Shown: piece by piece, positions 1,168-17,227 of the stretch
Position numbering within the stretch: the stretch's first letter is position 1
How the letters are laid out: the number at the start of each line of letters is the position of its first letter
Virus record (IMG/VR): IMGVR_UViG_2802429237_000005
Coordinates: 1 to 17,227 of that record
Direction: 5' to 3' (one strand)
Length of the DNA: 17,227 nucleotides
Source: a virus
Taxonomy: Duplodnaviria; Heunggongvirae; Uroviricota; Caudoviricetes
Notes under the pieces: model-generated
The model's database searches: none
Told to the model about the DNA's origin: nothing
Seen by the model: the letters and a program-made list of their open reading frames with translations, nothing else
Position numbers and translations under genes: made by a program

Positions 1168-1169
1168 TG

Positions 1170-1775: not shown

Positions 1776-1787
1776 TCAGAGGGGCCG

Positions 1788-2141
1788 ATGAAACTCAGTA
1801 TCGATTTTTGGGAAGTGATCTCCCTTATGCTTTCCTTCGTTGGATTAATATTTGCTGCCGGAAAATTGCTGTTAGCACAAATTGAAAAACGACTTAATGA
1901 ACGTTTTGAGTCTCTGGAAAATGCCCGCAGGGAATCAGAAACAAGTTGGTCGAAACTGGAAAGAGAATTTCTCGAATTTCGTGCCGAGCTTCCGCTGCAT
2001 TATGTCCGCAGAGAAGATTATCTTCGTGGGCAAGCTGTATTAGAAGCAAAGCTGGATGCCTTATATAGCAAAATCGAGCTGTTACAACGTGGCAGCTATA
2101 CTCTAAATAATTCGAGTTGCAGGAAGGCGGCAAGCGAATGA
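1788..2141 (+). CDS. membrane-anchored coiled-coil protein, possible i-spanin-like lysis accessory protein
   Basis: N-terminal transmembrane helix (VISLMLSFVGLIFAAGKLLL) followed by a charged heptad-like helical region. GAGGGG Shine-Dalgarno before the ATG. Sits in the lysis cassette. No embedded lipoprotein (o-spanin) ORF was found by manual frame reading. Confidence 0.45.
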   Translation: MKLSIDFWEVISLMLSFVGLIFAAGKLLLAQIEKRLNERFESLENARRESETSWSKLEREFLEFRAELPLHYVRREDYLRGQAVLEAKLDALYSKIELLQRGSYTLNNSSCRKAASE

Positions 2142-2231
2142 ATCTCCAGGAGCTTACATAAGTAAGTGACTGGGGTGAGCTAACGCAGACGCAGCACATG
2201 CAACTTGAAGTATGACGAGTATATTAAATAC

Positions 2232-2265
2232 ATCCCCACCTTTAGGTAAGCGTGGGGATTTTTAT
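2232..2265 (+). terminator. rho-independent terminator after the lysis cassette
   Basis: Inverted repeat ATCCCCAC (2232-2239) / GTGGGGAT (2252-2259) with a 12-nt loop, followed by TTTTTA (2260-2265). Confidence 0.6.
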
Positions 2266-2272
2266 AGTCATT

Positions 2273-2310
2273 CAATTTTTTCTCTAAATCACATTAAAAG
2301 ATTCTTCACC
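2273..2310 (+). promoter_or_regulatory. candidate activator-dependent promoter motif upstream of the tail-core genes
   Basis: CAAT-N7-CTAAATC-N4-TAAAAG block (2273-2300) repeated with identical spacing at 10832-10859, followed by ATTCTTCAC (2301-2309), which recurs at 824-832 upstream of the holin. Confidence 0.3.
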
Positions 2311-2372
2311 TTCACTGCTTCAGAATACATTTCAACGATAACGAAGTGAGCGGTAATTAAGGTACACCTCAT

Positions 2373-2828
2373 ATGAAAACTTTATCTGTAATGAATTATG
2401 TCGTGGTTAAATTACGTATTCGGCATCCTGAAATGGACATATTTATTTCATCTACGGACGCCCAAAAATATATTCCACAGACACAGCAAATTGCGGTGAT
2501 TATTAATTATAGCGGTTCTGTCTTTACCACGCCCGAAAGCAGTGATGCCATTGTGCAACAGCAAATACTCCGCTTAACCGCCACCGTTATTGTTGGCAAA
2601 AATTGTGACGCGTTAAACGCACTGGATCGCATACGCAGCACATTGGGTGGCCTTCAGCTTCCTGATTGCGATCGTCTTCTTTGGCTTGAAAAAGAAACTA
2701 ATACGGGTGAGAGCGGCGGTTTCTGCCGCTACATCCTGGAAATGGCGACCAGCTCGCTGTTTATCGCTGAACAGGAAAGCACGGATCTTCCCCTGCTTAC
2801 GGAAGTTAATTACGAGGAAACTGAATGA
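2373..2828 (+). CDS. hypothetical protein, 151 aa; placement suggests a tail completion/terminator-type protein
   Basis: Intact ORF, first gene after the terminator/promoter region, stop overlaps the next start (ATGA at 2825-2828). No motif I can assign with certainty; role inferred from its position before the sheath gene. Confidence 0.45.
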   Translation: MKTLSVMNYVVVKLRIRHPEMDIFISSTDAQKYIPQTQQIAVIINYSGSVFTTPESSDAIVQQQILRLTATVIVGKNCDALNALDRIRSTLGGLQLPDCDRLLWLEKETNTGESGGFCRYILEMATSSLFIAEQESTDLPLLTEVNYEETE

Positions 2829-3022
2829 AATACATCTACAACGGCCCGGCAAGCGGCGTCACCCTTGCCGACGGACAAGAAATCTTATTGTGGCCGAACA
2901 GTGAAATTGATCTGCCAGAAGACAACGAGTGGGTCATGACCATGATTGCCCGCAATCACCTGACTCCTGTCATCACTCAGGAAGAACAAAACAACGCAGA
3001 GGAAATTGTACATGGCAGCTAA
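2825..3022 (+). CDS. small conserved hypothetical protein, 65 aa, immediately upstream of the sheath gene
   Basis: Translationally coupled to flanking genes (ATGA overlap upstream, short overlap with the sheath start). Small acidic proteins in this position are common in Mu-like and P2-like tail clusters. Assignment by context. Confidence 0.45.
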   Translation: MKYIYNGPASGVTLADGQEILLWPNSEIDLPEDNEWVMTMIARNHLTPVITQEEQNNAEEIVHGS

Positions 3023-4436
3023 TTACCTGCACGGTGTAGAAACCATTGAAATTGAAACCGGCCCGCGTCCGGTTAAAGCGGTAAAATCCGCCGTCATCGC
3101 TTTAATCGGTACGGCCCCCTGTGGTCCGGTAAACAAACCAACATTATGCCTTTCTGAAAGCGATGCCGCGCAGTTTGGCGCAGGCATGGCTAACTTTACG
3201 ATCCCGCAAGCGCTGAAGGCAATTTATGACCACGGCGCCGGTACGGTGGTGGTGATTAACGTACTAGATCCGGCAAAACATGGCTCCAGCATCAGCAATG
3301 AGAGTATCACTTTTGATGCTAACAACCAGGCGAGACTCGCTCACCGCAATGTGCGTAACGTGGTACTAAAGCCCTCTTCATCAAATTCAACAACCTATAA
3401 CACCGCAGCATTTAGCGTAGATGAACAAACAGGCATAATTACCCGAAAAGGAGCCGACATTCCTCCTGGGGCAAAAGTTTGCGCCTATTATTCCTGGTGC
3501 GATCCTACAAAGGTTACCGCAGCCGATATTATCGGTGCCGTTAATACCGCAGGCGATCGCACGGGGATGAAACTGCTACAGGACACTTATAACCTGTATG
3601 GTTTCTACGCCAAAATCCTGCTTGCTCCCGTTTTCTGTACGCAAAAATCGGTGACTACTGAGCTAATTGCACAAGCGGAAAAACTCGGTGCTATCGCCTA
3701 CATTGACGCCCCAATCGGTACTACATTCCAGCAGGTGTTAGCTGGACGCGGTTCGCAAGGCGCAATCAACTTCAACACCAGCTCTGACCGTGCGCGTTTG
3801 TGCTATCCGCACGTCAAAGTTTATGACGGCGCAACCAACCAGGAAATTCTCGAACCGCTCTCTTCGCGCGCTGCCGGGCTGCGTGCCAAACTGGACGTGG
3901 AGAAAGGTTTCTGGTGGAGCAACTCAAACCAGGAAATTCAGGGTATTACCGGTATCGAACGTTCACTTTCCGCGATGATCGATGACCCGCAAAGTGAAGT
4001 GAATCAGCTCAACGAAAACGGCATTACCACTATTTTCAATAGTTACGGCTCTGGTCTGCGTTTATGGGGCAACCGCACTGCAGCATGGCCGACCGTGACC
4101 CATATGCGTAACTTTGAGAACGTTCGCCGCACGGGTGATGTGATTAACGAGTCGATCCGCTATTTCAGCCAACAGTATATTGATATGCCTATTAATCAGG
4201 CACTTATTGACGCGCTAACCGAATCGGTAAATACCTGGGGCCGAAAACTGATTGCCGACGGCGCACTGCTTGGCTTTGAGTGCTGGTACGATCCGGCGAG
4301 AAATTCACCGACTGAACTCAGCGCCGGGCATTTATTGCTGAGCTATAAATTCACCCCGCCGCCGCCGCTGGAACGTCTGACGTTTGAAACTGAAATTACT
4401 TCTGAATACTTAGTCTCTCTGGAGAGCAATAGCTAA
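3012..4436 (+). CDS. contractile tail sheath protein (P2 FI / Mu L-like)
   Basis: N-terminus MAANYLHGVETIEIETGPRPV and C-terminus CWYDPARNSPTELSAGHLLLSYKFTPPPPLERLTFETEI resemble recalled P2 FI sheath termini (xYHHGVQVLEI... and ...YIDYDYTPVPPLENLT...). ATG at 3012 preferred over the track's TTG at 3006; GAGGA lies upstream. Length of about 474 aa is typical. Confidence 0.9.
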   Translation: MAANYLHGVETIEIETGPRPVKAVKSAVIALIGTAPCGPVNKPTLCLSESDAAQFGAGMANFTIPQALKAIYDHGAGTVVVINVLDPAKHGSSISNESITFDANNQARLAHRNVRNVVLKPSSSNSTTYNTAAFSVDEQTGIITRKGADIPPGAKVCAYYSWCDPTKVTAADIIGAVNTAGDRTGMKLLQDTYNLYGFYAKILLAPVFCTQKSVTTELIAQAEKLGAIAYIDAPIGTTFQQVLAGRGSQGAINFNTSSDRARLCYPHVKVYDGATNQEILEPLSSRAAGLRAKLDVEKGFWWSNSNQEIQGITGIERSLSAMIDDPQSEVNQLNENGITTIFNSYGSGLRLWGNRTAAWPTVTHMRNFENVRRTGDVINESIRYFSQQYIDMPINQALIDALTESVNTWGRKLIADGALLGFECWYDPARNSPTELSAGHLLLSYKFTPPPPLERLTFETEITSEYLVSLESNS

Positions 4437-4960
4437 TGGCTGGAAAAATTCAAATTAATCGTATTACCAATGCCAATATTTATCTCGATGGTAATAACCT
4501 TTTAGGTCGTGCAACCGAAATTAAATTGCCGGATGTCAGTTTAATTATGCAAGAGCATAAGGCACTGGGCATGGTGGGTAAAATCGAACTCCCGGCTGGT
4601 TTCGATAAACTGGAGGGGGAAATTAAATGGAACTCCTTTTATCATGACGTCATGCGTAAAACGGCAAATCCGTGGCAGGCGGTAGCATTACAGTGCCGCT
4701 CCAGCATTGATTGCTATAACTCCCAGGGGAAAGCGAATCAATTAGCATTAGTGACACATTTAACCGTGATGTTTAAAAAGAATCCACTGGGCACATTTAA
4801 ACAGAATGAAAACCCGGAATTCAGCAGCGCCTTTGGCTGCACTTATATTAAACAAGTAGTCGATGGCGAAACACTGCTGGAACTGGATTACCTGGCGAAT
4901 ATTTTCCGCGTTAACGGCGTGGATCAATTAAGTACCTATCGCAATAACATCGGTGGTTAA
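4436..4960 (+). CDS. tail tube protein (P2 FII-like)
   Basis: ATG overlaps the sheath stop (TAATG). C-terminal motif VNGVDQLSTYRNNIGG matches the conserved end of P2-type tube proteins (recalled VNGVDRLEQHRRNIGL). Size 174 aa. Confidence 0.9.
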   Translation: MAGKIQINRITNANIYLDGNNLLGRATEIKLPDVSLIMQEHKALGMVGKIELPAGFDKLEGEIKWNSFYHDVMRKTANPWQAVALQCRSSIDCYNSQGKANQLALVTHLTVMFKKNPLGTFKQNENPEFSSAFGCTYIKQVVDGETLLELDYLANIFRVNGVDQLSTYRNNIGG

Positions 4961-4964
4961 GTTA

Positions 4965-4984
4965 TTCGGGGCTACCGCCCCGAA
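4965..4984 (+). other. GC-rich stem-loop after the tube gene (mRNA stabiliser or attenuator candidate)
   Basis: Perfect inverted repeat TTCGGGGC (4965-4972) / GCCCCGAA (4977-4984) with loop TACC. No downstream U-tract, so not a classical terminator. Confidence 0.4.
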
Positions 4985-5010
4985 CTTCGCAAAATAAATA
5001 AGGATACAAA

Positions 5011-5328
5011 ATGACAGAACACTATATCTTACAGTTTCCGTTTACTTCAGCGGCGGGAGACGTAATTAACACTCTGCAATTACGTCGCCTGAAAGTAAAA
5101 GATATGCGCAACGCACGCCGAATCAGCGAAAAGCCAGAAGAATGGGATGAACCGCTGATGGCGGCGATGACCGGACTGGTGCCGGAAGATTTAGCTGAAA
5201 TGGATTTGCTGGATTACCAGGCGTTGCAGAAACGATTTCAATCCATGCTTAGCGTGGCTACAGAATCCTCCCTTGCTATGGCAGGCAATGGCGCTACTGG
5301 CGAGATGGTTTCGCTTTCCGCCCAGTGA
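5011..5328 (+). CDS. tail assembly chaperone (P2 gpE-like position)
   Basis: 105-aa acidic ORF between tube and tape-measure genes, AAGGAT Shine-Dalgarno at 5000-5005. Followed by a 188-nt gap in which the +1 frame stays open to 5416, the expected arrangement for a frameshift-extended chaperone. Confidence 0.75.
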   Translation: MTEHYILQFPFTSAAGDVINTLQLRRLKVKDMRNARRISEKPEEWDEPLMAAMTGLVPEDLAEMDLLDYQALQKRFQSMLSVATESSLAMAGNGATGEMVSLSAQ

Positions 5329-5402
5329 GATCGACGCGCTCACAATAGATGACTTTAGCAACTGGCTGGATGAAGCCAGCGCTCAAATAAAGATCGAATA
5401 TG

Positions 5403-5433
5403 ACTCGCAGACCTGATGTCTGCGAGTTCTTTA
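5403..5433 (+). terminator. hairpin with T-rich tail between chaperone and tape-measure genes (attenuator/terminator candidate)
   Basis: ACTCGCAGAC (5403-5412) / GTCTGCGAGT (5418-5427) form a 10-bp perfect stem with loop CTGAT, followed by TCTTTA. The stop codon of the +1-frame extension (TGA 5414-5416) lies in the loop. Confidence 0.4.
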
Positions 5434-5516
5434 AAGCCCGCCAGGTTTATTTCTTCCCTGCCCATTTTTCAGAAAACTAACCAGCGGGCCATCACCAATC
5501 TATAAGAGAAACAATT

Positions 5517-7892
5517 TTGGCCAACGATATTATTACCCTGCTTCAGACGCGTAATGAGACGTTGACGCAGGCAATAGCCCGTTACGGCTCACTCAACGCC
5601 AGAACATTGTTAGCTCTCTCTTCTCAGCAAGCGACAGTAATCAAACTAACGCAGCAACTTGCCGATTCTGCTCTCCGCCTGGAGGAAAATAGCCGGAACC
5701 GCGCTGATCTGATGGAGAAAACCCAAACATTTGCCGGGCAATTTAACAAGGTATTCAATGTTGAAGCCCCTGACTGGAAGTTGCCGTATGAGTTTCAGGA
5801 CAACATGGTCAATATAGCGACCAAAGGTGGGATGAATGATACAACCAGCGTGACGCTCAGCCTTAACCTGCGCGACTGGAGCATGGATTTTAACCAGCAG
5901 CAGACCACATTACAGAACGCAGCCCAAACGCTGATCGAAGGCAATTTGTCGTCGTTGCAGGATCTCAACCGTTATATGCCGGAGATCGCCAAAGCTGCCA
6001 CCGCCACACGCGAAAGTGCTGAAACATGGGCGAATGCCGCGCTCACAACTCATGATCGCCTGAATATTGCGCCAGAAAATTTCCACGCCGCGCAAAACAT
6101 GATGTACGACATTAGCAAAAGCGGTGGGCCTGCCGTTGCCGAGCAAACGCAGTGGATAGACAAATTTGCAGGTAAAACGGGTGCGCAAGGTTTAGAAGGT
6201 ATGGCTGAACTGACCGCCACAATGCAGATCGCCATGAAAAACGGTGCCAGCGCCAGTGCGGCGGCGGAGAATTTCGACCACTTTCTGCAAACCACCTTTT
6301 CGAAAAAAACCGATAACTGGTTCGCCAGCCAGGGCGTCGATCTGCAAGGCTCTCTGCTTGAACATCAGCAAAACGGCATGGGTGTTAGCGAAGCCATGAC
6401 TCATATCGTGCAAATGCAGCTTGAGAAGATGAATCCGGCGATCCTCGGCACCTTCAAACGCACCATGCAGATTGAGGATTTATCTGCTCGCGGCAATGCA
6501 CTGCAATCGATGGTGACGCAATTTAATCTGGGTGAAATGTTCGGCGATGCACAAACTGTGGAATTCCTGGCTCCTATGTTGGCGAATATGGAAGAGTATC
6601 GCCAGTTAAAAACTTCCGCCATGCAAGCCAGCAGCAAGAATCTGATTGACTCCGACTTTTCTGCGCAGATGGCCTCGCCTATTGAACAGACTAAAGCGTT
6701 ACAGCTGGCGTTAAATGATTTATGGCTCAGCATTGGCTTGCAATTAATGCCGCTGATTGGCGAGCTGGCGCAAAGCCTTACGCCAGTGATTCGCCAGTTC
6801 AGCGCCTGGATACGTGAACACCCGGCGCTGGTGCAAAACATTGCGAAAATCGTCGGGGCGATTTGGCTGTTTAACGGCGCACTGAATGTTTTAAAGCTGG
6901 GCGCGAACTTCATCGCCTCGCCGTTTATTCGTCTGGTCGATATCTTCCTGAAAGTCAGGGCAAGTCTGGCGCTCACAGGCGCAGCGAGTAAGGTACTATC
7001 GGCGGTTAAGTCATTGGGTGGCGGCGCAAAATGGCTATCGCTACTGCTTGGTCGTGGCCTAATCGGAGCATTGAAACTGGTTGGTTTAACCGTTCTCTCG
7101 CTAGGCCGGGTGTTATTGATGAATCCCATTGGTCTGGTCATCACTGCGATTGCGGGCGCCGCTTATCTGATTTATCGCAACTGGGAGCCTATCTCAAGGT
7201 TCTTTTCGACCATCTGGCAACGTATCACCACGGCCTTTGACGGTGGCATTGCAGGAATTTGCCGGTTGATTCTCGACTGGTCGCCGCTGGAGTTGTTCTA
7301 TAGCGCCTTTTCCAGTGTGATGAATTGGTTTGGCGTTGAGATGCCAGCGAGTTTTAGCGAGTTCGGCAGCAATCTTCTGGGCAGTCTGGTTGACGGCATA
7401 ATGAATGCCTTCCCCGCTCTGAAAGGCATTATTGATCAGGTCAAAAACGTCTTACCGGACTGGCTAAAAACCACGATGGGTATTAGCACAGAAGGATCGG
7501 CTACGGCTGTTACAAGCACGACGAATACCGCATCCGTCTCCCCCGCAACCGTTGTTCCAGGCGTTGCCGGTGCAATTTTAACACCTCTGGTGGGCAAACA
7601 ACTCGCGCCCCCCAGCAAAACGACAACGCCGCCATCGGCACCAGCGGCAAAAAATACAGCCACCAACCCCGCATCGGCTTCTTTACCTGGTAAATCCGTA
7701 ACCAAACCGGCGACGCTACCTTCCCGTTCCTCAGGAAAAGTTCAGGTGAATTTTTCGCCACAAATTACCGTGCAGGGTAACGGACAAAACACCACTAAAG
7801 ACATTCAGAACGTGTTGACGATGAGTAAACGCGAACTGGAAAGAATGATTAACGACGTAATGGCGCAACAACAGCGCCGGGGGTATGCCTGA
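5517..7892 (+). CDS. tail tape measure protein
   Basis: 791-aa ORF directly after the chaperone, the longest gene in the cluster. Internal hydrophobic segment (LIGALKLVGLTVLSLGRVLLMNPIGLVITAIAGAAYLIY) and Thr/Pro/Ala/Ser-rich C-terminal region. TTG start at 5517 is the first start codon after an in-frame stop at 5478-5480; the start is uncertain. Confidence 0.85.
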   Translation: MANDIITLLQTRNETLTQAIARYGSLNARTLLALSSQQATVIKLTQQLADSALRLEENSRNRADLMEKTQTFAGQFNKVFNVEAPDWKLPYEFQDNMVNIATKGGMNDTTSVTLSLNLRDWSMDFNQQQTTLQNAAQTLIEGNLSSLQDLNRYMPEIAKAATATRESAETWANAALTTHDRLNIAPENFHAAQNMMYDISKSGGPAVAEQTQWIDKFAGKTGAQGLEGMAELTATMQIAMKNGASASAAAENFDHFLQTTFSKKTDNWFASQGVDLQGSLLEHQQNGMGVSEAMTHIVQMQLEKMNPAILGTFKRTMQIEDLSARGNALQSMVTQFNLGEMFGDAQTVEFLAPMLANMEEYRQLKTSAMQASSKNLIDSDFSAQMASPIEQTKALQLALNDLWLSIGLQLMPLIGELAQSLTPVIRQFSAWIREHPALVQNIAKIVGAIWLFNGALNVLKLGANFIASPFIRLVDIFLKVRASLALTGAASKVLSAVKSLGGGAKWLSLLLGRGLIGALKLVGLTVLSLGRVLLMNPIGLVITAIAGAAYLIYRNWEPISRFFSTIWQRITTAFDGGIAGICRLILDWSPLELFYSAFSSVMNWFGVEMPASFSEFGSNLLGSLVDGIMNAFPALKGIIDQVKNVLPDWLKTTMGISTEGSATAVTSTTNTASVSPATVVPGVAGAILTPLVGKQLAPPSKTTTPPSAPAAKNTATNPASASLPGKSVTKPATLPSRSSGKVQVNFSPQITVQGNGQNTTKDIQNVLTMSKRELERMINDVMAQQQRRGYA

Positions 7893-8845
7893 TGTATGCC
7901 GTTTTAGGAGAGATTGAATTTAAGGTTGTCACATTCTGGGACGGCTTTAAAAGCACAATGGGCGTGGATTACGCCACTCATGCCCGTATAGAGGGCAAAC
8001 CCGGCGTGCAGTTTATTGGCGATAAGCTGGATATGCTGGCGCTGGAATTTTCTCTGCACAGCCAGTTTTGCCAGCCCACAACAGAGCTGAATCGACTGCG
8101 TGAAGCCATGCTTGCGCACAAAGCGATGGCACTGGTATTTGGCAATGGCGATTATCGCGGCTGGTTTGTGATTACAGAGTTAACCGCCACCCACCAGCAC
8201 ACCGATCCCTGGGGCAATGTGATTGCCCAAAGCGGAACGATGTCGCTCCAGGAGTACACTGGCGCTCCTAAAAATCCACTCTTACCCCCGGCGATTACCG
8301 CCCAGGAGCCCAACATCGAGGAAAAGGCGAGCGATTTTCCAGACATGGTGGAGTCCTGGTTTGATCAGATATTAAACGCCATTGAAGAAGGTATGCGTAA
8401 GGCTAAAGAGATGCTGGATGAACTGACTCAAGCCATTGAAGATATTAAAAAAACAGTGGCAAAGGTCAAAGCACTAATTAAAGAGGCCAAAGCGTTAAAA
8501 GAAAAGTGTGAAAAGATAATTACGTCGTTGAAAAAAACAATCGACGCCATCGAAACCCTGTTTAAACAACCAATAGATCTGCAAACGCTGGCAGGACTCC
8601 CAAAAGCGTTGTCGGCGCAGATTAAAGCTTTACTGGGTAACATGCCAGGTATCCGGGACTGCGCCAATGACGCCAGTACGCTGGTTGACCATGCTCAGGC
8701 GCTTTTCGACGACATTACCAGCGACATCGCCGAAGCGACGTTTGATAAAGCCGCAGCGTTGGTTGATCAGGCACGAACAACGGTACAACAAACCACTCCA
8801 GCAGTGAGCCAGCTTGCTGCCGCGACCATTACGAGGAGCTGGTGA
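7892..8845 (+). CDS. P2 gpU-like tail protein with a ~190-aa C-terminal helical extension
   Basis: ATG overlaps the tape-measure stop (TGATG). The N-terminal ~125 aa (MYAVLGEIEFKVV...GWFVITELT) resemble recalled P2 gpU (MMVLGLFVF...GMFVI). The C-terminal half is Lys/Glu/Ala-rich with heptad-like periodicity (KAKEMLDELTQAIEDIKKTVAKVKALIKEAKALKEK). Confidence 0.7.
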   Translation: MYAVLGEIEFKVVTFWDGFKSTMGVDYATHARIEGKPGVQFIGDKLDMLALEFSLHSQFCQPTTELNRLREAMLAHKAMALVFGNGDYRGWFVITELTATHQHTDPWGNVIAQSGTMSLQEYTGAPKNPLLPPAITAQEPNIEEKASDFPDMVESWFDQILNAIEEGMRKAKEMLDELTQAIEDIKKTVAKVKALIKEAKALKEKCEKIITSLKKTIDAIETLFKQPIDLQTLAGLPKALSAQIKALLGNMPGIRDCANDASTLVDHAQALFDDITSDIAEATFDKAAALVDQARTTVQQTTPAVSQLAAATITRSW

Positions 8846-9054
8846 TGCGATACCTTGAACATATCACCACCGACGGCGAACGCTGGGATAATCTGGCATG
8901 GCATTACTACGGCGATGCGCTGGCTTATGAACGTATTATCGCCGCCAATCCACATGTCGCCATTTACCCGGTACTGCCTTCCGGTATTCAGCTCATTATT
9001 CCGGTCATTTCCGTCAACAAAACCTTATCGGAGATCCCACCATGGCTGAGATAA
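8845..9054 (+). CDS. tail protein X (P2 gpX-like)
   Basis: 69-aa protein with a ...WHYYGD...IIAANP... pattern resembling recalled P2 gpX (...RYYGR...VLAANP...). GAGGAG Shine-Dalgarno at 8833-8838. ATG at 8845 preferred over GTG at 8842. Confidence 0.8.
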   Translation: MRYLEHITTDGERWDNLAWHYYGDALAYERIIAANPHVAIYPVLPSGIQLIIPVISVNKTLSEIPPWLR

Positions 9055-10082
9055 GCGTATCTGGTGGCGTCTTTGCCACGCTTGCGCCCATTTTTACCCT
9101 CTGGTATGGGCATAAAGATATCACTTATGACATCACGCCCTATGTCACCAGCATCAGTTACCACGACAGCATCAAAAACGAGTCGGATACCATCGCGATT
9201 ACCCTGGATGATACCGATGGACGCTGGATAAAAGAGTGGTATCCCGGCAAAGGCGATACGCTGGCGCTGCATATGGGTTATCAGGGGGAGAAGCTTCTCG
9301 ATTGCGGTCAGTATATTATTGATAAAATTGATATTTCAGCGCCACCTTCCACGGTAAATATTGATGGCATCGCCACTTCCGTCAATCAGGCGCTGCGCAC
9401 CCGTAACAGCCAGGGTTTTGAAGAAACGACGCTTTCGGCTATTGCCAGCCGTATCGCGCAAACTCACGGTCTGAAGCTGGTGGGCAAAATCGAACCGCTG
9501 ACGATTGACCGGGTGACACAGTATGGCGAAACCGATGTCGGATTTCTCAAGCGTCTGGCCAGTGAATATGGCTATGCCGTAAAAGTGACGACAAAAGAGC
9601 TTATTTTTTCACATCTGCCGACGTTACGCTGCCTGGCGCCAGTGAAAAGCATCGACCGCAAAGAGGTTTCCCACTTCACCTTCAAAGACACCATTAATCG
9701 CATCTACAAGAACGCCACCGTACAACATCAAAACAGTAAGAAAAAAGAGTTGGTTATCTACACACATGACAGCCAGCAAAAACCGTCCGCCCGTGGAGCA
9801 GGCACCAGTGCCGACACGTTAAAACTCAATAGCCGGGCGCCGGACGTTGGCGCGGCACAGGCAAAGGCCAACGCTGCACTCAACAGCCACAACGAATATC
9901 AGCAAACCGGAACGCTAAAGATGATGGGCTGCCCGGAACTGACGGCAGGCAATAAAATCGAGCTAACCGATTTTGGTGTGCTTTCCGGTCAGTGGCTGAT
10001 TGATAAATCTACTCACAGTTTTGTGCGCAGCGGCTATACCACTGAAATCGACGTTTCGCGCGGGCCAGCGACCAGCCAGTAA
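9042..10082 (+). CDS. baseplate hub / late control gene D protein (P2 gpD-like)
   Basis: 346-aa ORF with patterns matching recalled gpD: GDTLALHMGY, TTLSAIASRIAQTHGLKL, GETDVGFLKRLASEYGYAV. Position directly after gpX. Confidence 0.85.
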   Translation: MAEISVSGGVFATLAPIFTLWYGHKDITYDITPYVTSISYHDSIKNESDTIAITLDDTDGRWIKEWYPGKGDTLALHMGYQGEKLLDCGQYIIDKIDISAPPSTVNIDGIATSVNQALRTRNSQGFEETTLSAIASRIAQTHGLKLVGKIEPLTIDRVTQYGETDVGFLKRLASEYGYAVKVTTKELIFSHLPTLRCLAPVKSIDRKEVSHFTFKDTINRIYKNATVQHQNSKKKELVIYTHDSQQKPSARGAGTSADTLKLNSRAPDVGAAQAKANAALNSHNEYQQTGTLKMMGCPELTAGNKIELTDFGVLSGQWLIDKSTHSFVRSGYTTEIDVSRGPATSQ

Positions 10083-10091
10083 GGAGGCAAT

Positions 10092-10793
10092 ATGAAAGGA
10101 GTAACCCGGCAAACGGGGATTATCAGCGATATTGACGAAACCAGCGTTCGGGTGCGGGTCACGCTGCCAGAGTGTGACAATCTGAAGAGCAACTGGCTTG
10201 CGGTACTTCAACGCAATTCCCAGGACAATAAAGACTACTGGCTACCGGATATGGGCGAGCAAGTGGAAGTTCTGCTGGACGATAACGGTGAAGATGGCGT
10301 GGTGCTGGGCGCAGTTTATTCTACGGTTGACACCGCGCCAGTGGCCTCGCGCGACAAACGTTACGTCCAGTTTTCTGATGGCGCAGCGTTTGAATATGAC
10401 CGCAGCACCCACCAACTTACGATTAACGGCGGTATCGAGAAAATCGTGATTGAGGTTATCGACAGTACCCGCCTGACATCGCCCAACATTGAGATTAAAG
10501 CCCAACAGGTCAGCGTGACTTCCGATACCGTCGATGTTAAAGCGACCGATGTCAACATCGACGCCACTGAGGTCAATGTTAAAGCGGCAGCAGTGACGGT
10601 AGATGCGCCCATAAGTACCTTTACTGGTAACGTCACGGTAATGAAAAAACTCACCTGGCTTGGCGGGATGGCAGGAAGTGGAGGCATCGGTAACGCCGCC
10701 ACGATAACCGGCAATGTCAACGTGATCGGCAACGTTCAGGCCAGCGGCACATTGCAGGACAGCGGAGGCAACTCAAACCACCATTCACACTAA
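10092..10793 (+). CDS. baseplate central spike (P2 gpV-like)
   Basis: AAGGAGG Shine-Dalgarno before the ATG. N-terminal OB-fold-like region, repetitive V/T/D-rich beta-helical segment (VTSDTVDVKATDVNIDATEVNVKAAAVTVDA) and C-terminal His cluster NSNHHSH, consistent with the metal-binding apex of P2-type spikes. Confidence 0.85.
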   Translation: MKGVTRQTGIISDIDETSVRVRVTLPECDNLKSNWLAVLQRNSQDNKDYWLPDMGEQVEVLLDDNGEDGVVLGAVYSTVDTAPVASRDKRYVQFSDGAAFEYDRSTHQLTINGGIEKIVIEVIDSTRLTSPNIEIKAQQVSVTSDTVDVKATDVNIDATEVNVKAAAVTVDAPISTFTGNVTVMKKLTWLGGMAGSGGIGNAATITGNVNVIGNVQASGTLQDSGGNSNHHSH

Positions 10794-10799
10794 CTTTTA

Positions 10800-10828
10800 A
10801 CCCGCCTGATGGCGGGTTTTCTCTTTTT
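10800..10828 (+). terminator. rho-independent terminator between spike and baseplate-wedge genes
   Basis: ACCCGCC (10800-10806) / GGCGGGT (10811-10817) with loop TGAT, followed by TTTCTCTTTTT. Confidence 0.65.
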
Positions 10829-10831
10829 AAT

Positions 10832-10859
10832 CAATCAGTTTTCTAAATCGCTTTAATAT
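10832..10859 (+). promoter_or_regulatory. candidate activator-dependent promoter motif upstream of gpW
   Basis: CAAT-N7-CTAAATC-N4-TAATAT with the same internal spacing as the block at 2273-2300. Lies between the terminator and the gpW start codon. Confidence 0.3.
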
Positions 10860-10891
10860 CGCCACTGCCCGTTCAGGGCGAAAATACCCTC

Positions 10892-11251
10892 ATGAACACA
10901 AAAACAAGACCCTCAACGCTGCACTGGCAACCAGCCTTGCAGCGGCCTGAAGAATACGTCTGCGGGCAGGATGATATTCACCAGGCAATACACATCATTC
11001 TGCGTACACCGCGCGGCAGTGATCCCCACAGACCGCTGTTTGGCAGCAACTTGTGGCACTACATCGATTACCCCATCGAGCGGGCAATCCCGCATGTGGT
11101 ACGGGAGTCGGTGGAAGCCATCCGCCAGTGGGAACCGCGATGCCGGTTGCTGAAGGTGACACCAGTAATCGACGGTGAACATCTGACGTTACGTGTGCAA
11201 TGGCGCGCCGCTGACGGTGTTATCAACTCAACGGAGGTGTTATGGCGATAG
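10892..11251 (+). CDS. baseplate wedge protein (P2 gpW / GPW_gp25 family)
   Basis: 119 aa. Pattern DDIHQAIHIILRTPRGSDPHRPLFGSNLW...AIRQWEPR matches the gpW/gp25 family (recalled P2 W: ...IGDILRTPVGSRVMRRDYGS...VLKWEPR). Confidence 0.85.
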   Translation: MNTKTRPSTLHWQPALQRPEEYVCGQDDIHQAIHIILRTPRGSDPHRPLFGSNLWHYIDYPIERAIPHVVRESVEAIRQWEPRCRLLKVTPVIDGEHLTLRVQWRAADGVINSTEVLWR

Positions 11252-12357
11252 CCGAACCCAATTTTATTGACCGCGATCCTGCGCAAATTACCAGTGAGAT
11301 GATTGCGCAATACGAAGATGCCAGCGGTAAAAAACTCTACCCGGCACAGGCCGAGCGGTTGCTTATCGACCTGTTTGCCTATCGTGAAAACCTTGTACGC
11401 ATCGCCATTCAGGAAGCGGCGAAACAAAACCTGGTCGCGTATTCCCGCGCGCCAATGCTGGATTATTTAGGTGAACTGGTGGGCGTTCACCGTTTACCTG
11501 CACAACCGGCAAAAACGACGTTGCAGTTTTCGGTCGTCAGTACATATGCCAGCAATATCCTGATTCCCCAGGGGACGCGGGCCAGTGCCTCTGATAGCGT
11601 GATGTTCGCCACCGATGAAGATGTTCTGCTTCCGGCGGGAAGTTTGCATATCGCCGTTCCTGCCACCAGCCTCGCAACAGGTGAACAGGGTAACGGCTGG
11701 CAGCCTGCACAAATTAGCGCACTTGTCGACAGGATTGGTCATTATGACATCAACGTAACCAACCTGACTGCGTCAACGGGCGGCTGCGGTGAGGAGAGCG
11801 ATGAGGCATTGCGCCAGCGTATCCAACTGGCACCAGAAAGCTTCAGCAATGCAGGCAGCTATGGCGCATACCGCTTTCATACGCTTTCTGTTAGCCAGTC
11901 GATTATTGACGTTGCAGTACTGGGACCAGATGAGGGGTTGCCAGAAGGCTGCGTGGAGATCTACCCGCTAACGCTGAATGGCCTGCCGGGCGTGGAACTG
12001 CTCGTGCAAATCGAACAGGAAGTTAGCAAGGAGAAAAAACGTCCGCTGACCGACAAAGTGAGTGCGAAATGCGCTCTTCGAGTACCGTATGAGATCCGTG
12101 CGCAGCTAACGCTGTTTACCACCGCCGATCAGGAGACAACGCTGGCTGCGGCGCGTAAAGCGATTAGCCTCTGGACGCAACAGCGGCAGAAACATCTGGG
12201 ACAGGACATTGTGCCAAACCAGATAATCAAAGTGTTACAGGTCAATGGCGTCTATGACGTTGTGCTGAACTTGCCTACAAAACGCATTTTGCAGGCACAT
12301 GAGTGGGCGGAATGCACCGCAATAGACGTCACGATTGCCGGAGTCAGCGATGGATAA
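11242..12357 (+). CDS. baseplate protein J (P2 gpJ-like)
   Basis: 371 aa, GGAGG Shine-Dalgarno before the ATG, 10-nt overlap with gpW. Conserved position and size; N-terminal region resembles the baseplate J family. Confidence 0.85.
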   Translation: MAIAEPNFIDRDPAQITSEMIAQYEDASGKKLYPAQAERLLIDLFAYRENLVRIAIQEAAKQNLVAYSRAPMLDYLGELVGVHRLPAQPAKTTLQFSVVSTYASNILIPQGTRASASDSVMFATDEDVLLPAGSLHIAVPATSLATGEQGNGWQPAQISALVDRIGHYDINVTNLTASTGGCGEESDEALRQRIQLAPESFSNAGSYGAYRFHTLSVSQSIIDVAVLGPDEGLPEGCVEIYPLTLNGLPGVELLVQIEQEVSKEKKRPLTDKVSAKCALRVPYEIRAQLTLFTTADQETTLAAARKAISLWTQQRQKHLGQDIVPNQIIKVLQVNGVYDVVLNLPTKRILQAHEWAECTAIDVTIAGVSDG

Positions 12358-12982
12358 ATTGCTGCCGCCACCGCCGCTTGCCAGCGATGAGCGTTTTTCG
12401 ATTCTGGCAAATATCGCCGCCGAGCGTTTTGCCCAACTCGATCTGACGGCGTTGATGGTTTATCTGGTCGACCTGGTTGATGCTTCGGCTTTGCCTACGC
12501 TTGCAGAACAATTTCACGTTCAGGGGCTGGAAGGTTGGTTATTTACCACCGATGAGCGGGAGAAGCGCGAGTTAATTAAGCAAGCCATTGAGCTGCATAA
12601 ATATAAAGGAACAATTTGGGCGGTACGGCAGGTACTGGAAATACTCTCGCTACCCGGAACTATTTCCGAATGGTTTGAATATGGCGGGAAGGCTTATTTT
12701 TTTAAGGTTGATATAGAGCTGGTGGATAAAGGCATGGATGAAAACCTTTTCAATAATCTGGTAGAACTCATTCATGAATATAAAAACACACGTTCAAAAC
12801 TGGAAGCATTAATTGTCTGGATCATTAACCAAAGTGCTATTCCTGTTATTGGTTGTGCACTTTATGGTGGTGAACTGACGACGGTTTTACCTTTCCAGAT
12901 AAGGGAAGTACAGCAAAACACATCAATTTATTACGGAACAGGGCAATGGAGCCTTGAAATTACATCTATTTACCCGGAGTGA
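12350..12982 (+). CDS. baseplate/tail protein I (P2 gpI-like)
   Basis: ATG at 12350 with GGAG at 12340-12343 preferred over the track's TTG at 12335. Motif HKYKGTIWAVRQVLE resembles recalled P2 gpI (HCHKGTIGAIRRVVE). Confidence 0.8.
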   Translation: MDKLLPPPPLASDERFSILANIAAERFAQLDLTALMVYLVDLVDASALPTLAEQFHVQGLEGWLFTTDEREKRELIKQAIELHKYKGTIWAVRQVLEILSLPGTISEWFEYGGKAYFFKVDIELVDKGMDENLFNNLVELIHEYKNTRSKLEALIVWIINQSAIPVIGCALYGGELTTVLPFQIREVQQNTSIYYGTGQWSLEITSIYPE

Positions 12983-12984
12983 TT

Positions 12985-14466
12985 ATGGATAATGAGTTTT
13001 ATACTCTGCTCACCAGCAGGGGGATGGCAAAAATTGCCAATGCCCTTGCAAATAAAAAACAGCTTCATCTACAAAAGATGGCCATTGGAGACGGCGGTGG
13101 GCAATATTATGAACCCACCGTCAGCCAAACTAAATTACGTCACGAAGTATGGCGTGGCGATTTAAATACATTAACCGTTGCGCCCAATAATCCTAACTGG
13201 TTAATTGCGGAACTTGTACTGCCCGAAAATATCGGTGGCTGGTATGTACGTGAAGTCGGTGTTTTTGATACTGACGGTGAACTCATTGCTATCGGTAAAT
13301 TCCCTGAGTCGTATAAACCGCTATTACCCGGCGGCAGCGGTAAGCAAGTTTGCATTCGTCTTATTATGGAAGTTTCCAATACGGCAGCGGTAACACTCAC
13401 CGTTGACCCCAGTATTGTGCTGGCAACGCGCGATTACGTCGATTCGCAACTGGATGAACATGAACGTTCAACTAATCATCCTGATGCTACGTTATCGCAA
13501 AAAGGCTTTACGCAGTTGAGTAACTCCACTGACAGCGATGACGAAACCAAAGCGGCTACGCCCAAAGCGGTGAAAGCAGCGATGATTGAAGCTCGAAATC
13601 ATCGTCATACCTGGAGTCAGATTACTGATATTCCGGATGGCACGCTGGCGCAAAAAGGGATCGTGAAGCTTAATAACGCGACCAATAGTACCAGCACGAC
13701 AGAGGCGGCGACACCGAGCGCGGTCAAGGCGGCGTATGACCTGGCGAATGGTAAGGCTGCGGGAAACCATACTCACCCATGGGGGCAGATTACGGGTGTT
13801 CCAGACGGCACCCTGTCGCAAAAAGGGATTGTGACGCTTAATAACGCGACGGATAGCACCAGTACGACTGAGGCGGCGACGCCTAGTGCGGTGAAGGCGG
13901 CGTATGACTTGGCGAATGGTAAGGCTGCGGGTAGTCATACGCACCCCTGGGGGCAGATTACCAATATTCCCGACGCAACTCTTGGTAAGAAAGGAATTGT
14001 TCAGCTAAGCAGTACCGTCCCTAATACCAGTACAACAGAAGCAGCAACGCCATACTCAGTTAAGGTTGCCTATGACCTTGCGAACACTAAAGCTCCGGCA
14101 AGCCATACTCATCCATGGAATCAAATTACTGGTATCCCGGACGGTACGCTGACGCAAAAAGGGATTGTGAAGCTTAATAACACAACAAACAGCACCAGTA
14201 CAACAGAGGCGGCGACACCCAGTGCGGTGAAGGCTGCGATGGACAAAGCAAATACAGCTTTGAATAACACCACTGCATCTATATCAGATGTCAGACTGGG
14301 TGCTAAATTTGATCAGGTTATGGCAAAAGGGGGGCGCTATGAATTTCCTGGTAATGTTCTGACTGGGTTGAGAATTATCGGAGAAGTGGATGGAGATGAT
14401 CTCGCTATATTTCGCCCACTTCAGATAAAGGTTAGAGGTTCTTGGTATACGGTAGGACAACTTTAA
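12985..14466 (+). CDS. tail fiber protein (P2 gpH-like N-terminal domain, tandem-repeat shaft, conserved C-terminal domain)
   Basis: ATG at 12985 with GGAG upstream (track start is GTG at 12979). N-terminal region (...MAIGDGGG...HEVWRGDLN...IAELVLPENIGGWYVREVGVFD...YKPLLPGGSGKQ...) matches the P2 H-type fiber N-terminus. Five tandem repeats of the ATPKAVKAAxDLAN type. C-terminus GLRIIGEVDGDD...FRP. Confidence 0.9.
   Translation: MDNEFYTLLTSRGMAKIANALANKKQLHLQKMAIGDGGGQYYEPTVSQTKLRHEVWRGDLNTLTVAPNNPNWLIAELVLPENIGGWYVREVGVFDTDGELIAIGKFPESYKPLLPGGSGKQVCIRLIMEVSNTAAVTLTVDPSIVLATRDYVDSQLDEHERSTNHPDATLSQKGFTQLSNSTDSDDETKAATPKAVKAAMIEARNHRHTWSQITDIPDGTLAQKGIVKLNNATNSTSTTEAATPSAVKAAYDLANGKAAGNHTHPWGQITGVPDGTLSQKGIVTLNNATDSTSTTEAATPSAVKAAYDLANGKAAGSHTHPWGQITNIPDATLGKKGIVQLSSTVPNTSTTEAATPYSVKVAYDLANTKAPASHTHPWNQITGIPDGTLTQKGIVKLNNTTNSTSTTEAATPSAVKAAMDKANTALNNTTASISDVRLGAKFDQVMAKGGRYEFPGNVLTGLRIIGEVDGDDLAIFRPLQIKVRGSWYTVGQL
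13477..14247 (+). repeat. five in-frame tandem repeats (153-168 nt; 51-56 aa) in the tail fiber shaft
   Basis: The unit TL(S/A/T)QKGIVxLNNxTxSTSTTEAATPSAVKAAYDLANGKAAGxHTHPWxQITxIPDG recurs five times; the nucleotide period measured between CAAAAAGGGAT copies is 153, 168, 168, 168 nt. Confidence 0.85.
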
Positions 14467-15119
14467 TGGAATATAAAAATTTCACACTCTATAAACCGGC
14501 AGAAAGTATTGGTGGTATTTTTTATCTAAAATCTGATGACGATGTTGATTGGTACGAGGCACAAAAAAAATTTTCTGCCGAAACGTTAAAAATTGCTTAT
14601 GACAGCACAGGTAGAATTTGCATTGCGGATACTGATGCATCAGCGATTTGGCCAATAAATTCATCTATCAGTGAGATCTCATCTGAGAATGTTCCTGATG
14701 ATTTTTCAACAAATGGGAAATGGTTCTGGAATGGCGAAACGATAATCAATGCTGTAACAATCGTAACTGCTAAAAAAAATAAAATGGAGGATATCAAAAA
14801 TCGACGAGATGAAATAACGGCAGACTACATCATCATCAACGACCATCACTTCCACAGTGATACCAGCAGCCGAATCCAACAGATCTCGCTCACTAAAATG
14901 GGTAAGGAGAAACAAATTCCGCCAGGTTTAATGTGGAAAACTAAAAATAACGGTCTGATTGAGTTAACCAACGAAATCGCCGCGCAGTTTGAATCCGTCA
15001 CCATGGATCACGATATGCGCTTATTCGCCAACGCCCAACGTCATATCGCGGCGGTGGAAGCTCTGGACGATATTCAGGCGGTGCTCGATTACGATTACTC
15101 CACAGGCTGGCAACCATGA
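14466..15119 (+). CDS. tail fiber assembly protein (P2 gpG-like chaperone)
   Basis: ATG at 14466 overlaps the fiber stop (TAATG); the track start at 14442 lies inside the fiber gene. Pattern DWYEAQKKFSAETLKIAYDSTGRICI resembles recalled P2 gpG ([26 protein letters not shown]). AT-rich N-terminal part is typical of exchangeable fiber/chaperone cassettes. Confidence 0.8.
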   Translation: MEYKNFTLYKPAESIGGIFYLKSDDDVDWYEAQKKFSAETLKIAYDSTGRICIADTDASAIWPINSSISEISSENVPDDFSTNGKWFWNGETIINAVTIVTAKKNKMEDIKNRRDEITADYIIINDHHFHSDTSSRIQQISLTKMGKEKQIPPGLMWKTKNNGLIELTNEIAAQFESVTMDHDMRLFANAQRHIAAVEALDDIQAVLDYDYSTGWQP

Positions 15120-15571
15120 GTAAAACCACTGTCTGGCTCGCTTGTTATAAGGGCCGAACAGAGCACCGCGGTATTGCCCGACTGGCTGACTGGCTTACCC
15201 GTAAGATCACACGCGGTAGTTATTCCCACTGTGAATTAGCCGTTAAGCATGGTGAAAAGAGTTACCTTTGTTACTCCGCATCCCTACGCGATCGCGGCGT
15301 ACGCGGAAAGATAATGCCATTACCGCCAGATAAGTGGGATATGCTGCCACTTAACTCCAGCCTTCAGGACGTTGAAGCTTTTTTCCATAAACATGATGGC
15401 AAAAAATATGACTGGCGCGGCGCGCTTGGAATTATCACCGGCAATAAAGAACAGCGCGATCGCCTGTTTTGCAGTGAATTTTGTGCTGAATTCCTGCAAT
15501 TAAAAGATAGTTGGCGATACTCACCAAATCACCTGTATGCCTTAGTAAGTAACTGGCAATCCCATCCGTAA
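15116..15571 (+). CDS. hypothetical 151-aa protein, last gene of the tail operon; tentative permuted papain-fold (NlpC/P60 / LRAT / YiiX-like) signature
   Basis: ATGA start/stop overlap with the assembly-protein gene implies translational coupling. N-terminal His motif (TEHRGIA) and C-terminal Cys motif (LFCSEFCAEF) about 100 residues apart, an order and spacing reminiscent of LRAT/YiiX-type enzymes. The fold assignment is a motif-level guess. Confidence 0.6.
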   Translation: MSKTTVWLACYKGRTEHRGIARLADWLTRKITRGSYSHCELAVKHGEKSYLCYSASLRDRGVRGKIMPLPPDKWDMLPLNSSLQDVEAFFHKHDGKKYDWRGALGIITGNKEQRDRLFCSEFCAEFLQLKDSWRYSPNHLYALVSNWQSHP

Positions 15572-15576
15572 ATAAC

Positions 15577-15601
15577 ACCGGGCACAGTGCCCGGTTCCTT
15601 A
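15577..15601 (+). terminator. stem-loop/terminator at the end of the tail operon
   Basis: Perfect palindrome ACCGGGCAC-A-GTGCCCGGT (15577-15595) followed by TCCTTATAT. Downstream sequence turns AT-rich and lacks long ORFs. Confidence 0.5.
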
Positions 15602-16084
15602 TATACTCTAAATAGCTTATATAGACACATCCCCGATGCAAGCACGGTCAGACAGAGAAAATGGCCTCAGTGCCTTACCCCAAAAGGGCTGACCGAAAGT
15701 GGAACACTATTCCGCGAGGCTATTTAGAATCAGGCTATAAGGCATTCATAAAAAATATCATTCCACACAAAACATTTGCATAGAGAATAAAAAGCGATTT
15801 TTAAACATAAATATATTGCGTTATAAATCACTTCAAATATAGTTTGTCCTTTTGGCGCCCTCATAGACGATGCGAGGAAACAGCATGTTTACTGCCTCAC
15901 TCCTCTGGAAAAGTAAGGTTATCACTAATAAAAATGAGTCAGATAACACGTTACTGTCTGCACGCCACAAAGATAGAGGCTTAAGTAGGGCAACATTCAT
16001 ACATACACTATGCACATACGCTGATTCCTCATTTGCTTATAAAAACTCAATAAAGCAAGGTAACAATAAAAAGGATAATTCATC

Positions 16085-17227
16085 ATGGTTGATAAAATAA
16101 TTTTCACTGTTACGCCAATTTTTTCCATTCCTCCACGTTGCGCTGCTGCTGTAGAAACCTGGATTTATCAGGTTGCTATGATGACAAGAATACCGAATAG
16201 AATTGTTTGTATAAAAGAAGAAGGTTATTCTGATACCACCACTGTCAGTGAACGATGCTCAATTCATCGCATCGGATTCAGTCGAATTTATAAACGCATA
16301 TTTCAGAAATTGACGCGTATAGATCCCCTACCTTACTCTCAACGAATTTTGAATGTCGCTAACGATTTCAATATTACGGATAACAGTGTAATCATTGTAC
16401 ATAATAGCATGAAGTTATATCGTCAGATTCATGAGCGTTCACCTCAGGCAAAAATAGTAATGCATATGCATAACGCTTATGAGCCAAAAGGAATGGATGC
16501 CGATGTCAAAATGATCGTCCCCAGCAACTATTTAAAAAACTATTATCAGGGGTTCCTTCCTGATGCAGACATCGCTATAGTTCCAAATGGCACAGATCCA
16601 TATAATACAGATAAGCACCATGCCAAAATCAACAGATCTGATCTGAACATATCCCCTGACAAGAAGATTATATTTTATGCGGGAAGAATATCTCCTGAAA
16701 AAGGGTTGATGTTACTTCTGCAAGCGTTTGAACTACTCATCAGAACCCATGATGATATAGAACTGGTTGTTATCGGAGATTATGCGAGCAAAAGTAAGGG
16801 TGAAAAAGGAATTTACCAACAGAAAATTCGAGAATTAGCAAAACAACTAGGTTCACACTGCCATATGTTAGGAGGTGTCGCTCCTGAGGAAATGTATCGC
16901 TATTATTCTCTGGCTGATTTAGTTGTTATTCCATCTCAATTTCAGGAGCCATTTTGTATGGTGGCAATAGAAGCGATGAGTGCAGGTAAACCTGTACTGG
17001 TGAGTACTCGAGGTGGAATGATAGAATTTGTAAAAGATAAAGATACCGGCTATCACCTGCAAGAGCCGATGACACCCGAAACAATTGCTGTAGATATAGA
17101 AAAAACACTTAACAATTCTGATTTACTTAGTGTTGCCCATCACGGAAAACAATTTGTCATGGAAAATTATTTATGGTGGCAAGTCACTCACAAGTTTGAA
17201 ACTGTAATTAGCAATTGGTTTGATTGA
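16085..17227 (+). CDS. GT4-family (GT-B fold, retaining) glycosyltransferase
   Basis: 380-aa ORF with AAGGA Shine-Dalgarno upstream. C-terminal domain motifs typical of GT4 enzymes: GRISPEKG, VIPSQFQEPFCMVAIEAMSAGKPVLVS with the E-x7-E signature (EPFCMVAIE). Markedly AT-rich codon usage compared with the tail genes (by eye). Confidence 0.85.
   Translation: MVDKIIFTVTPIFSIPPRCAAAVETWIYQVAMMTRIPNRIVCIKEEGYSDTTTVSERCSIHRIGFSRIYKRIFQKLTRIDPLPYSQRILNVANDFNITDNSVIIVHNSMKLYRQIHERSPQAKIVMHMHNAYEPKGMDADVKMIVPSNYLKNYYQGFLPDADIAIVPNGTDPYNTDKHHAKINRSDLNISPDKKIIFYAGRISPEKGLMLLLQAFELLIRTHDDIELVVIGDYASKSKGEKGIYQQKIRELAKQLGSHCHMLGGVAPEEMYRYYSLADLVVIPSQFQEPFCMVAIEAMSAGKPVLVSTRGGMIEFVKDKDTGYHLQEPMTPETIAVDIEKTLNNSDLLSVAHHGKQFVMENYLWWQVTHKFETVISNWFD

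Follow-up and report, generated by a model that had tools for sequence, protein, structure and literature searches.

A solitary WaaK/WaaD-family glycosyltransferase cassette at the distal end of an Escherichia tail-only island

The window analysed here, a 17,227-nt stretch of DNA recorded as viral (IMG/VR record IMGVR_UViG_2802429237_000005, positions 1 to 17,227), consists of a phage-derived tail cluster followed by a single gene for a GT4 glycosyltransferase (GT) of the lipopolysaccharide (LPS) outer core, the stop codon of which coincides exactly with the end of the window. Flanking core genes are 88–94% identical to those of E. coli, and the source names of the protein cluster include Escherichia sp. 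E4742, E. ruysiae and ‘MULTISPECIES Escherichia’, which together point to a non-coli Escherichia as the host. The GT gene lies roughly 1 kb downstream of the tail-fibre and fibre-assembly genes on the same strand, outside the waaQ operon and away from waaL, between the tail island and the RlaP gene and yjbD. Comparison with related islands, plasmids and prophages shows that the gene belongs to an inserted cassette and suggests that it may remodel a cell-surface receptor. The features of the GT region are as follows.

15577–15595, no strand assigned: left copy of the terminator hairpin (ACCGGGCACAGTGCCCGGT), from the sequence and a terminator scan
15596–15725, no strand assigned: unconserved part of the spacer, including a 7-bp inverted repeat, from shuffles and lineage comparison
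15726–16084, plus strand: GT-linked upstream region, conserved in all five cassette-bearing lineages
15813–15849, plus strand: invariant 37-nt block (ATATTGCGTTATAAATCACTTCAAATATAGTTTGTCC), candidate promoter
16085–17227, plus strand: WaaK/WaaD-family LPS outer-core GT4 glycosyltransferase, 380 amino acids (aa), from NF012028, Pfam, the identity matrix and omega

Identity of the glycosyltransferase

The GT product matches the NCBIfam profile NF012028/PRK15484 (‘lipopolysaccharide N-acetylglucosaminyltransferase’) from end to end (673.1 bits, residues 1–380 on profile positions 1–380; curated cutoff 618) and contains a Pfam Glycos_transf_1 domain (PF00534, E 3.2e-38). Its EX7E motif is intact (E288–E296, EPFCMVAIE, nt 16946–16972), is kept in all members of its clade and aligns with the motif of the solved GT4 structure 6kih. 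These matches bear out an earlier sequence-only reading, which had called a GT4 glycosyltransferase in the open reading frame (ORF) at 16085–17227, and by family match and motif the gene is an intact, full-length LPS outer-core transferase of the WaaK/WaaD family. The window GT is 66% identical at the amino acid level to E. coli R3 WaaD and 53% identical to WaaK of Salmonella and E. coli R2. The NF012028 family is heterogeneous: the known N-acetylglucosamine (GlcNAc) transferases (WaaK) form the outgroup to the clade of the window GT, whose sister clade is formed by the R3 enzyme of the chromosomal waa locus. Given the 53% identity to WaaK and the outgroup position of the latter, GlcNAc specificity should not be assumed, and the best name is that of a predicted WaaK/WaaD-family outer-core alpha-1,2-hexosyltransferase with either glucose (Glc) or GlcNAc as donor.

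The closest known counterpart is WaaD of the R3 core and Shigella flexneri, encoded between waaJ and waaL, which resembles the window GT over its full length of 380 aa, shares the EPFCMVAIE motif and is encoded by a gene of similarly low GC (0.367). WaaD is reported to add the terminal glucose of the R3 outer core (PMC3972090). Whereas WaaD belongs invariably to the waaQ operon, beside waaL, the window GT is a solitary cassette with its own conserved upstream region, 1 kb from fibre genes. WaaK (RfaK) of Salmonella enterica and E. coli R2, the UDP-GlcNAc:(glucosyl)LPS alpha-1,2-N-acetylglucosaminyltransferase, has the same family, fold and length as the window GT and differs in its lower identity, its outgroup position and its place in the waa operon. 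The GlcNAc added by WaaK serves as the receptor of phage FelixO1, impedes a different phage and is required for ligation by WaaL (PMC8744999, PMC13293308).

In a tblastn search of 72,556 plasmids, close matches (66–69%) occurred in 16 records, those examined being P1-like phage-plasmids; the remaining matches were GT4 genes of other genera, at most ~36% identical. An identity as a WabB-like enzyme, the inner-core GlcNAc transferase of pO157 and Shigella, was rejected by the indirect test that no pO157-type plasmid matched at E <= 1e-10.

The junction, the cassette and its history

Directly past the stop of a 151-aa ORF (15116–15571) stands the G+C-rich hairpin at 15577–15595, beyond which GC falls from ~0.50 to 0.38, as the sequence-only reading had described. 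The spacer (15572–16084) is 513 nt long with a GC of 0.388. The GT ORF has a GC of 0.381 and a GC at third codon positions (GC3) of 0.318, compared with a GC3 of 0.43–0.63 in the tail genes and 0.50–0.57 in the flanking and downstream chromosomal core genes, so that the profile of composition and codon use suggested as a check marks both spacer and GT as AT-rich. Low GC alone is not peculiar to this junction, because the tail cluster has further AT-rich patches (~400–800, 12600–13000 and 14400–14800).

The spacer had been described as ~500 nt lacking a credible ORF, and this description holds. Its single plus-strand ORF of at least 60 aa (15870–16100, 76 aa) evolves neutrally (omega 0.79–0.86) and is disrupted by a 4-nt indel in the sister lineage L018, and we rejected it as a gene on both grounds. 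The 7-bp inverted repeat singled out earlier (CGGTCAG, 15645–15651; CTGACCG, 15689–15695) is indeed present but occurs at chance level and is unconserved. Of dinucleotide-preserving shuffles of the spacer, 79% yield one or more perfect 7-bp inverted repeats within 60 nt; the spacer itself holds four (two of them in the hairpin) against a shuffle mean of 2.1. The left arm of the repeat is mutated in L018, and the stretch that contains it (15596–15725) falls outside the region conserved with L029, the most distant cassette copy. We therefore rejected the repeat as a functional element.

Homology common to all cassette copies starts at ~15726. From there to the GT start codon the sequence evolves at ~40% of the synonymous rate of the GT (Jukes–Cantor (JC) distance 0.24–0.28 versus a synonymous distance (dS) of 0.65), and within it the 37-nt block at 15813–15849 is identical in the window, L018, L029, L033 and L037 and is absent upstream of the family’s other clades. 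The block can be read as TTGCGT (15816–15821), a 16-nt spacer and TATAGT (15838–15843), which agree with the promoter consensus at 8 of 12 positions. It is a candidate promoter, from which the GT may be expressed. Other regulatory elements were sought in this region. No Rfam family matched the spacer and GT region at E <= 1, the predicted fold of a structured leader RNA was no better than that of shuffles (z = 0.08), and a covariation check of such a leader had three sequences, too few for the purpose. The spacer contains no RfaH-dependent ops/JUMPstart element, the closest GGCGGTAG matches falling inside tail genes. Two exact matches to this ops core lie in or next to the tube gene (4678–4685, plus strand; 4972–4979, minus strand), and over the whole window there are 19 matches with at most one mismatch against a shuffle mean of 9.7, a number reached in 4 of 200 shuffles; this surplus is probably compositional.

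Relative to the E. coli and E. albertii-labelled islands, the spacer and GT form a cassette of ~1.7 kb bracketed by two hairpin copies. Homology to the empty site of E. coli IAI39 stops at window position 15584 (position 9500 of L002, a contig of the window lineage) and resumes ~1,697 bp on (L002 11198). The second hairpin copy lies 54–72 nt past the window end (L002 11206–11224), and both junctions hold a full hairpin, with differing loops. The IAI39 island has a single hairpin (AACGCCGGGCATCACGCCCGG) common to the 151-aa ORF and the convergent RlaP gene, and the same empty site is found in the E. albertii-labelled L041, whose core genes are ~89–90% identical to those of all others. Both hairpin copies score as terminators on the minus strand only, suggesting that they derive from the RlaP terminator. 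We found no transposase, integrase, transposon-like terminal inverted repeats or target duplications beyond the hairpin at the cassette. That the cassette was inserted at the terminator separating the tail island from RlaP is firm, and its foreign composition together with the clean indel relative to IAI39 and the E. albertii-labelled island supports the earlier suggestion that the GT DNA was separately acquired. Among 5,426 complete E. coli genomes the cassette is found in none, and the island without the cassette in 151.

The same cassette occupies the same site in other Escherichia lineages, including P0122 (E. ruysiae according to its source) and P0123, with GT genes 95–97% identical at the nucleotide level; the lineages of these two types have the tail cluster and lack the RlaP gene. 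Divergence of the GT follows that of yjbD–rluF (L018/L033 99.5% identical in both, L033/L037 96–97% in both), indicating vertical inheritance from a common ancestor, and the gene is under purifying selection (omega 0.14–0.16), also when a tail-less lineage is compared. In this tail-less lineage (L018–L021), which is 99.5% identical to a tail-bearing one, the equivalent of window positions 459–15255 is deleted, so that the 5′ part of a holin-like ORF runs directly into the 3′ end of the 151-aa ORF; the hairpin, spacer and intact GT are kept. The most divergent cassette copy (84% aa identity) is on the 1990-nt contig L029, where an rluF fragment flanks it on the left (1–70) and a yjbD fragment on the right (1917–1988). 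This order is permuted relative to the chromosome and could be due to rearrangement, to a tandem or circular arrangement or to faulty assembly.

Relatives beside tail-fibre genes and the possible role of the enzyme

Members of the same GT clade recur next to fibre genes in other elements. On the ~95-kb P1-like phage-plasmids of E. albertii, E. coli and E. fergusonii, the GT gene and a fibre-assembly gene ~55 nt away point towards each other; a hexapeptide acetyltransferase gene flanks the GT, and the macro-domain and fibre genes follow. This order recurs on a phage-plasmid that has an IncFII replicon and a P2-like tail, and in L030 the GT converges on a Caudo_TAP_N/DUF4376 assembly gene. The Salmonella GT P0040, which is very common (>2,500 index blocks), lies in prophage regions ~3.3 kb from a fibre-assembly gene and fibre. 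A fibre-assembly gene is present within 3.4 kb in 9 of 10 IMG/VR viral contigs with a close GT homologue. That the clade turns up repeatedly beside receptor-binding modules, in temperate elements unrelated to one another, lends support to a ‘moron’ function connected with phages. Like the window GT, the phage-plasmid and Salmonella prophage GTs (68–72% identity) are solitary, AT-rich and placed beside the fibre module of a temperate element. They converge on a Caudo_TAP-type assembly gene, often together with a hexapeptide acetyltransferase and a macro-domain protein, whereas the window GT is co-directional, follows the 151-aa ORF and hairpin, and belongs to a headless chromosomal island; the two groups have no upstream sequence in common. 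Our searches turned up no study of any of these phage-plasmid or prophage genes.

In two of the phage-plasmids (L017 5274–9686; L027 3567–6759), the acetyltransferase paired with the GT is a hexapeptide-repeat enzyme resembling DapH/GlmU, and the macro-domain protein is encoded between the fibre and assembly genes. Phage-plasmid assembly genes are homologous to those beside the Salmonella prophage copy (54–87% aa identity), suggesting a mobile module of fibre tip, chaperone and GT. An assignment of the Salmonella copy to a sequenced phage such as ST64B is not supported, there being no deposited phage genome with a close homologue.

Known lysogenic-conversion modules (gtrABC and O-acetyltransferases of P22-like phages, SfV and BTP1) alter LPS and block superinfection (PMC7067206, PMC4413052). 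As in these modules, which are prophage-borne AT-rich accessory genes at the tail end, the window has an accessory gene that by homology modifies LPS, within a phage-derived element near its fibre end. GtrA, GtrB and GtrC act in the periplasm on the O-antigen through bactoprenol-linked sugars, whereas the window encodes one GT4 enzyme, cytoplasmic and with the core as its predicted target. No Gtr-type or O-acetyltransferase gene was found: the ORFs scanned at 11242–17227 are baseplate, fibre, fibre-assembly or matchless, and RlaP, yjbD and rluF follow downstream.

We favour, with a probability of roughly 0.6, the reading that the cassette is a receptor-remodelling ‘moron’, a one-gene unit that alters the terminal outer core. 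It builds directly on the family of the enzyme, the solitary cassette and its insertion relative to E. coli and E. albertii, purifying selection, vertical inheritance and the recurrent linkage to fibre modules. The cassette, comprising the conserved upstream region with its candidate promoter, the GT gene and the hairpin, would sit at the distal end of the tail island between lysC and yjbD and express the GT from its own promoter. By homology, the cytoplasmic GT-B/GT4 enzyme would transfer one alpha-1,2-linked hexose (Glc like R3 WaaD, or GlcNAc like WaaK) to the terminal outer core, and its position outside the waa operon suggests that the host core would gain a terminal or branch sugar or have one altered. 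From this we infer that the changed core may alter adsorption of, and sensitivity to, core-binding phages and tailocins, and possibly the site of O-antigen ligation.

Several points weigh against this reading. The candidate promoter is weak by consensus, and a simple scan of the plus strand of the spacer for a consensus sigma-70 promoter returned none. The cassette persists after deletion of the tail cluster and is vertically inherited, so whatever advantage it confers could be independent of the adjacent tails. In S. enterica subsp. arizonae, a copy with 75% identity stands between umuDC and a gene for an endonuclease, away from any phage genes, and no close homologue was found in the deposited phage genomes of INPHARED. 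The enzyme could also be redundant with host waa genes. The form of the reading that is specific to tailocins is further opposed by the contrast between the GT, 95.3–99.5% identical between islands, and the fibre gene, 57–78% identical, with products of 442, 493 and 541 aa whose C-terminal domains differ between islands.

The alternative that fares best is that the GT is an ordinary host gene for LPS-core diversification, unrelated to phages and lodged at an insertion-prone junction, where it might contribute, for instance, to the specificity of O-antigen ligation, to serum resistance or to colonisation of the gut. Inheritance congruent with the flanking core genes, purifying selection and retention without tails all fit this explanation, as do the phage-free arizonae context and the chromosomal R3 waa-locus enzyme as sister clade. 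It leaves unexplained why the clade has a fibre-assembly neighbourhood in at least four unrelated temperate elements and in nearly all of the viral contigs counted above. We regard it as a serious rival, albeit not a probable one.

A dedicated self-immunity gene, in which the GT would cap the core epitope bound by the neighbouring fibre and so spare producers, as the self-protection idea of the sequence-only reading would have it, seems doubtful. The short co-directional distance from the fibre genes across a hairpin that is a poor plus-strand terminator is in keeping with such a gene, as are the fibre modules adjoining its relatives elsewhere and the common use of the LPS core as receptor by contractile tailocins, R-pyocin fibres among them (PMC6363177). 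However, L041 and the 151 complete E. coli genomes noted above have the tail cluster but no GT, variation of the fibre in identity, length and domains is not mirrored by the GT, and L018–L021 show that its co-occurrence with tails is not obligate; tails without GT, GT without tails and this lack of co-variation together make dedicated self-immunity less likely.

Action on a target other than LPS, such as a phage or tail protein or a nucleic acid, after the manner of ‘conflict-system’ GT4 enzymes, is very improbable. A secondary Pfam match to PF20706 (GT4-conflict; 44.8 bits, residues 191–324) points that way but covers only the generic nucleotide-sugar-binding half, against the full-length match to an LPS-core family and the 66% identity to a waa-operon enzyme; PADLOC anti-phage defence models gave no match to the GT, the 151-aa ORF, RlaP or slipin. 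Finally, the idea that the GT is the edge or first gene of a longer LPS or capsule locus beyond the window, to which only its AT-rich composition lends itself, is refuted, because contigs with an identical GT protein, which match the window with 0–1 mismatches over 11 kb, continue with a convergent (minus-strand) RlaP nucleotidyltransferase gene, yjbD, rluF, ccdAB or a sorbose operon, pepE, yjbB and metH, and the downstream check that had been advised turned up no additional polysaccharide genes in them. The sequence-only reading had held that membership of a long LPS or capsule operon in strains lacking the tail cluster would tell against a link to the tails: the L018–L021 lineage does keep the GT without tails, but the gene is not part of such an operon.

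An extension of the favoured reading, which we put forward tentatively, is that the mobile WaaD/WaaK-like clade is a module of ‘core-level lysogenic conversion’ that travels with fibre tip, assembly chaperone and GT among P1-like phage-plasmids, P2-like elements, Salmonella prophages and the Escherichia tailocin island. Such a module might cap the terminal outer-core sugar, exclude the cognate particle and other core-binding phages, and act as the resistance determinant of a tailocin producer. Public databases already give the protein a homology-based name, and prophage accessory genes that modify LPS are a known kind. In the literature searched we found no description of the Escherichia lysC–yjbD tailocin or of a prophage-borne WaaK/WaaD homologue, and no report of the WaaD/WaaK-like clade as recurrent fibre-module cargo or as capping a headless Escherichia tail island. 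The finding, as read from sequence, may best be called a moderately interesting, testable lead and not a discovery. If the enzyme does remodel the outer core, phage-derived elements of Escherichia and Salmonella would change the LPS core and not the O-antigen alone. Many rough-specific phages, P1-type phages and contractile bacteriocins use the core as their receptor, and it also has the site to which O-antigen is attached. The question bears on host-range prediction for phage therapy, on in-silico core typing, which considers the waa locus only, and on how tailocin producers avoid killing themselves. Islands with tails only, with tails and GT, and with GT only provide a natural set of genotypes.

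The tail island and its surroundings

The remainder of the window is occupied by the tail-only island, which has the following features.

1–15571, plus strand: tail-only (tailocin-like) island, from Pfam and PHROGs scans, genes called on identical contigs and IAI39 synteny
1–342, minus strand: Mor-type late activator
382–651: holin-like ORF of the lysis cassette, 89 aa
1092–1775: lytic transglycosylase of the lysis cassette
1788–2141: lipoprotein of the lysis cassette
3006–4436: sheath
4436–4960: tube
5517–7892: tape measure
within the tail island: homologues of gpU, gpX, gpD, gpV, gpW, gpJ and gpI
12979–14466: tail fibre
14442–15119: DUF4376 fibre-assembly protein
15116–15571: 151-aa ORF

In E. 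coli IAI39 the syntenic island is bounded by lysC and yjbD and lacks head, terminase and integrase genes. The ORF at 382–651, the first of the late operon, is holin-like by position, has a GC of 0.293 and matches no PHROG. The fibre gene (12979–14466) is hypervariable relative to L033, L037 and L004 (57–78% nucleotide identity, products of 442–582 aa) in islands otherwise 92–96% identical; the window fibre has five Phage_fiber_2 repeats, and some other island fibres have a Collar domain.

The 151-aa ORF is conserved in every version of the island, in E. coli, the E. albertii-labelled genome and the cryptic-clade lineages. Pfam, NCBIfam and PADLOC gave no match to it; its PHROGs match is phrog_1128 (E 7e-59), which is in the ‘moron’ category with a doubtful enoyl-CoA hydratase label; its His...Cys pattern (YSHCE ... 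FCSEFC) resembles that of permuted papain/NlpC-P60-like enzymes.

A pair of RlaP and slipin (Band_7) genes closes the island distally in E. coli and the E. albertii-labelled genome (L004 18187–20111; L041 6471–8395). The pair was apparently lost stepwise, slipin being gone in the window lineage (L002 11214–12005) and both genes in L033 and L037. The same island sequence is followed by differing rluF–pepE intervals, with a ccdAB toxin–antitoxin in one contig (L001 13557–14167) and a sorbose PTS operon in another (L002 13817–20336). A further viral record, L043 (IMG/VR UViG 2913112809_000005, 16,976 nt), is the same island, and its contig end cuts the GT (residues 13–380 matched, 95% identity); as this contig spans the island including the GT, provirus callers count the GT as ‘virus’.

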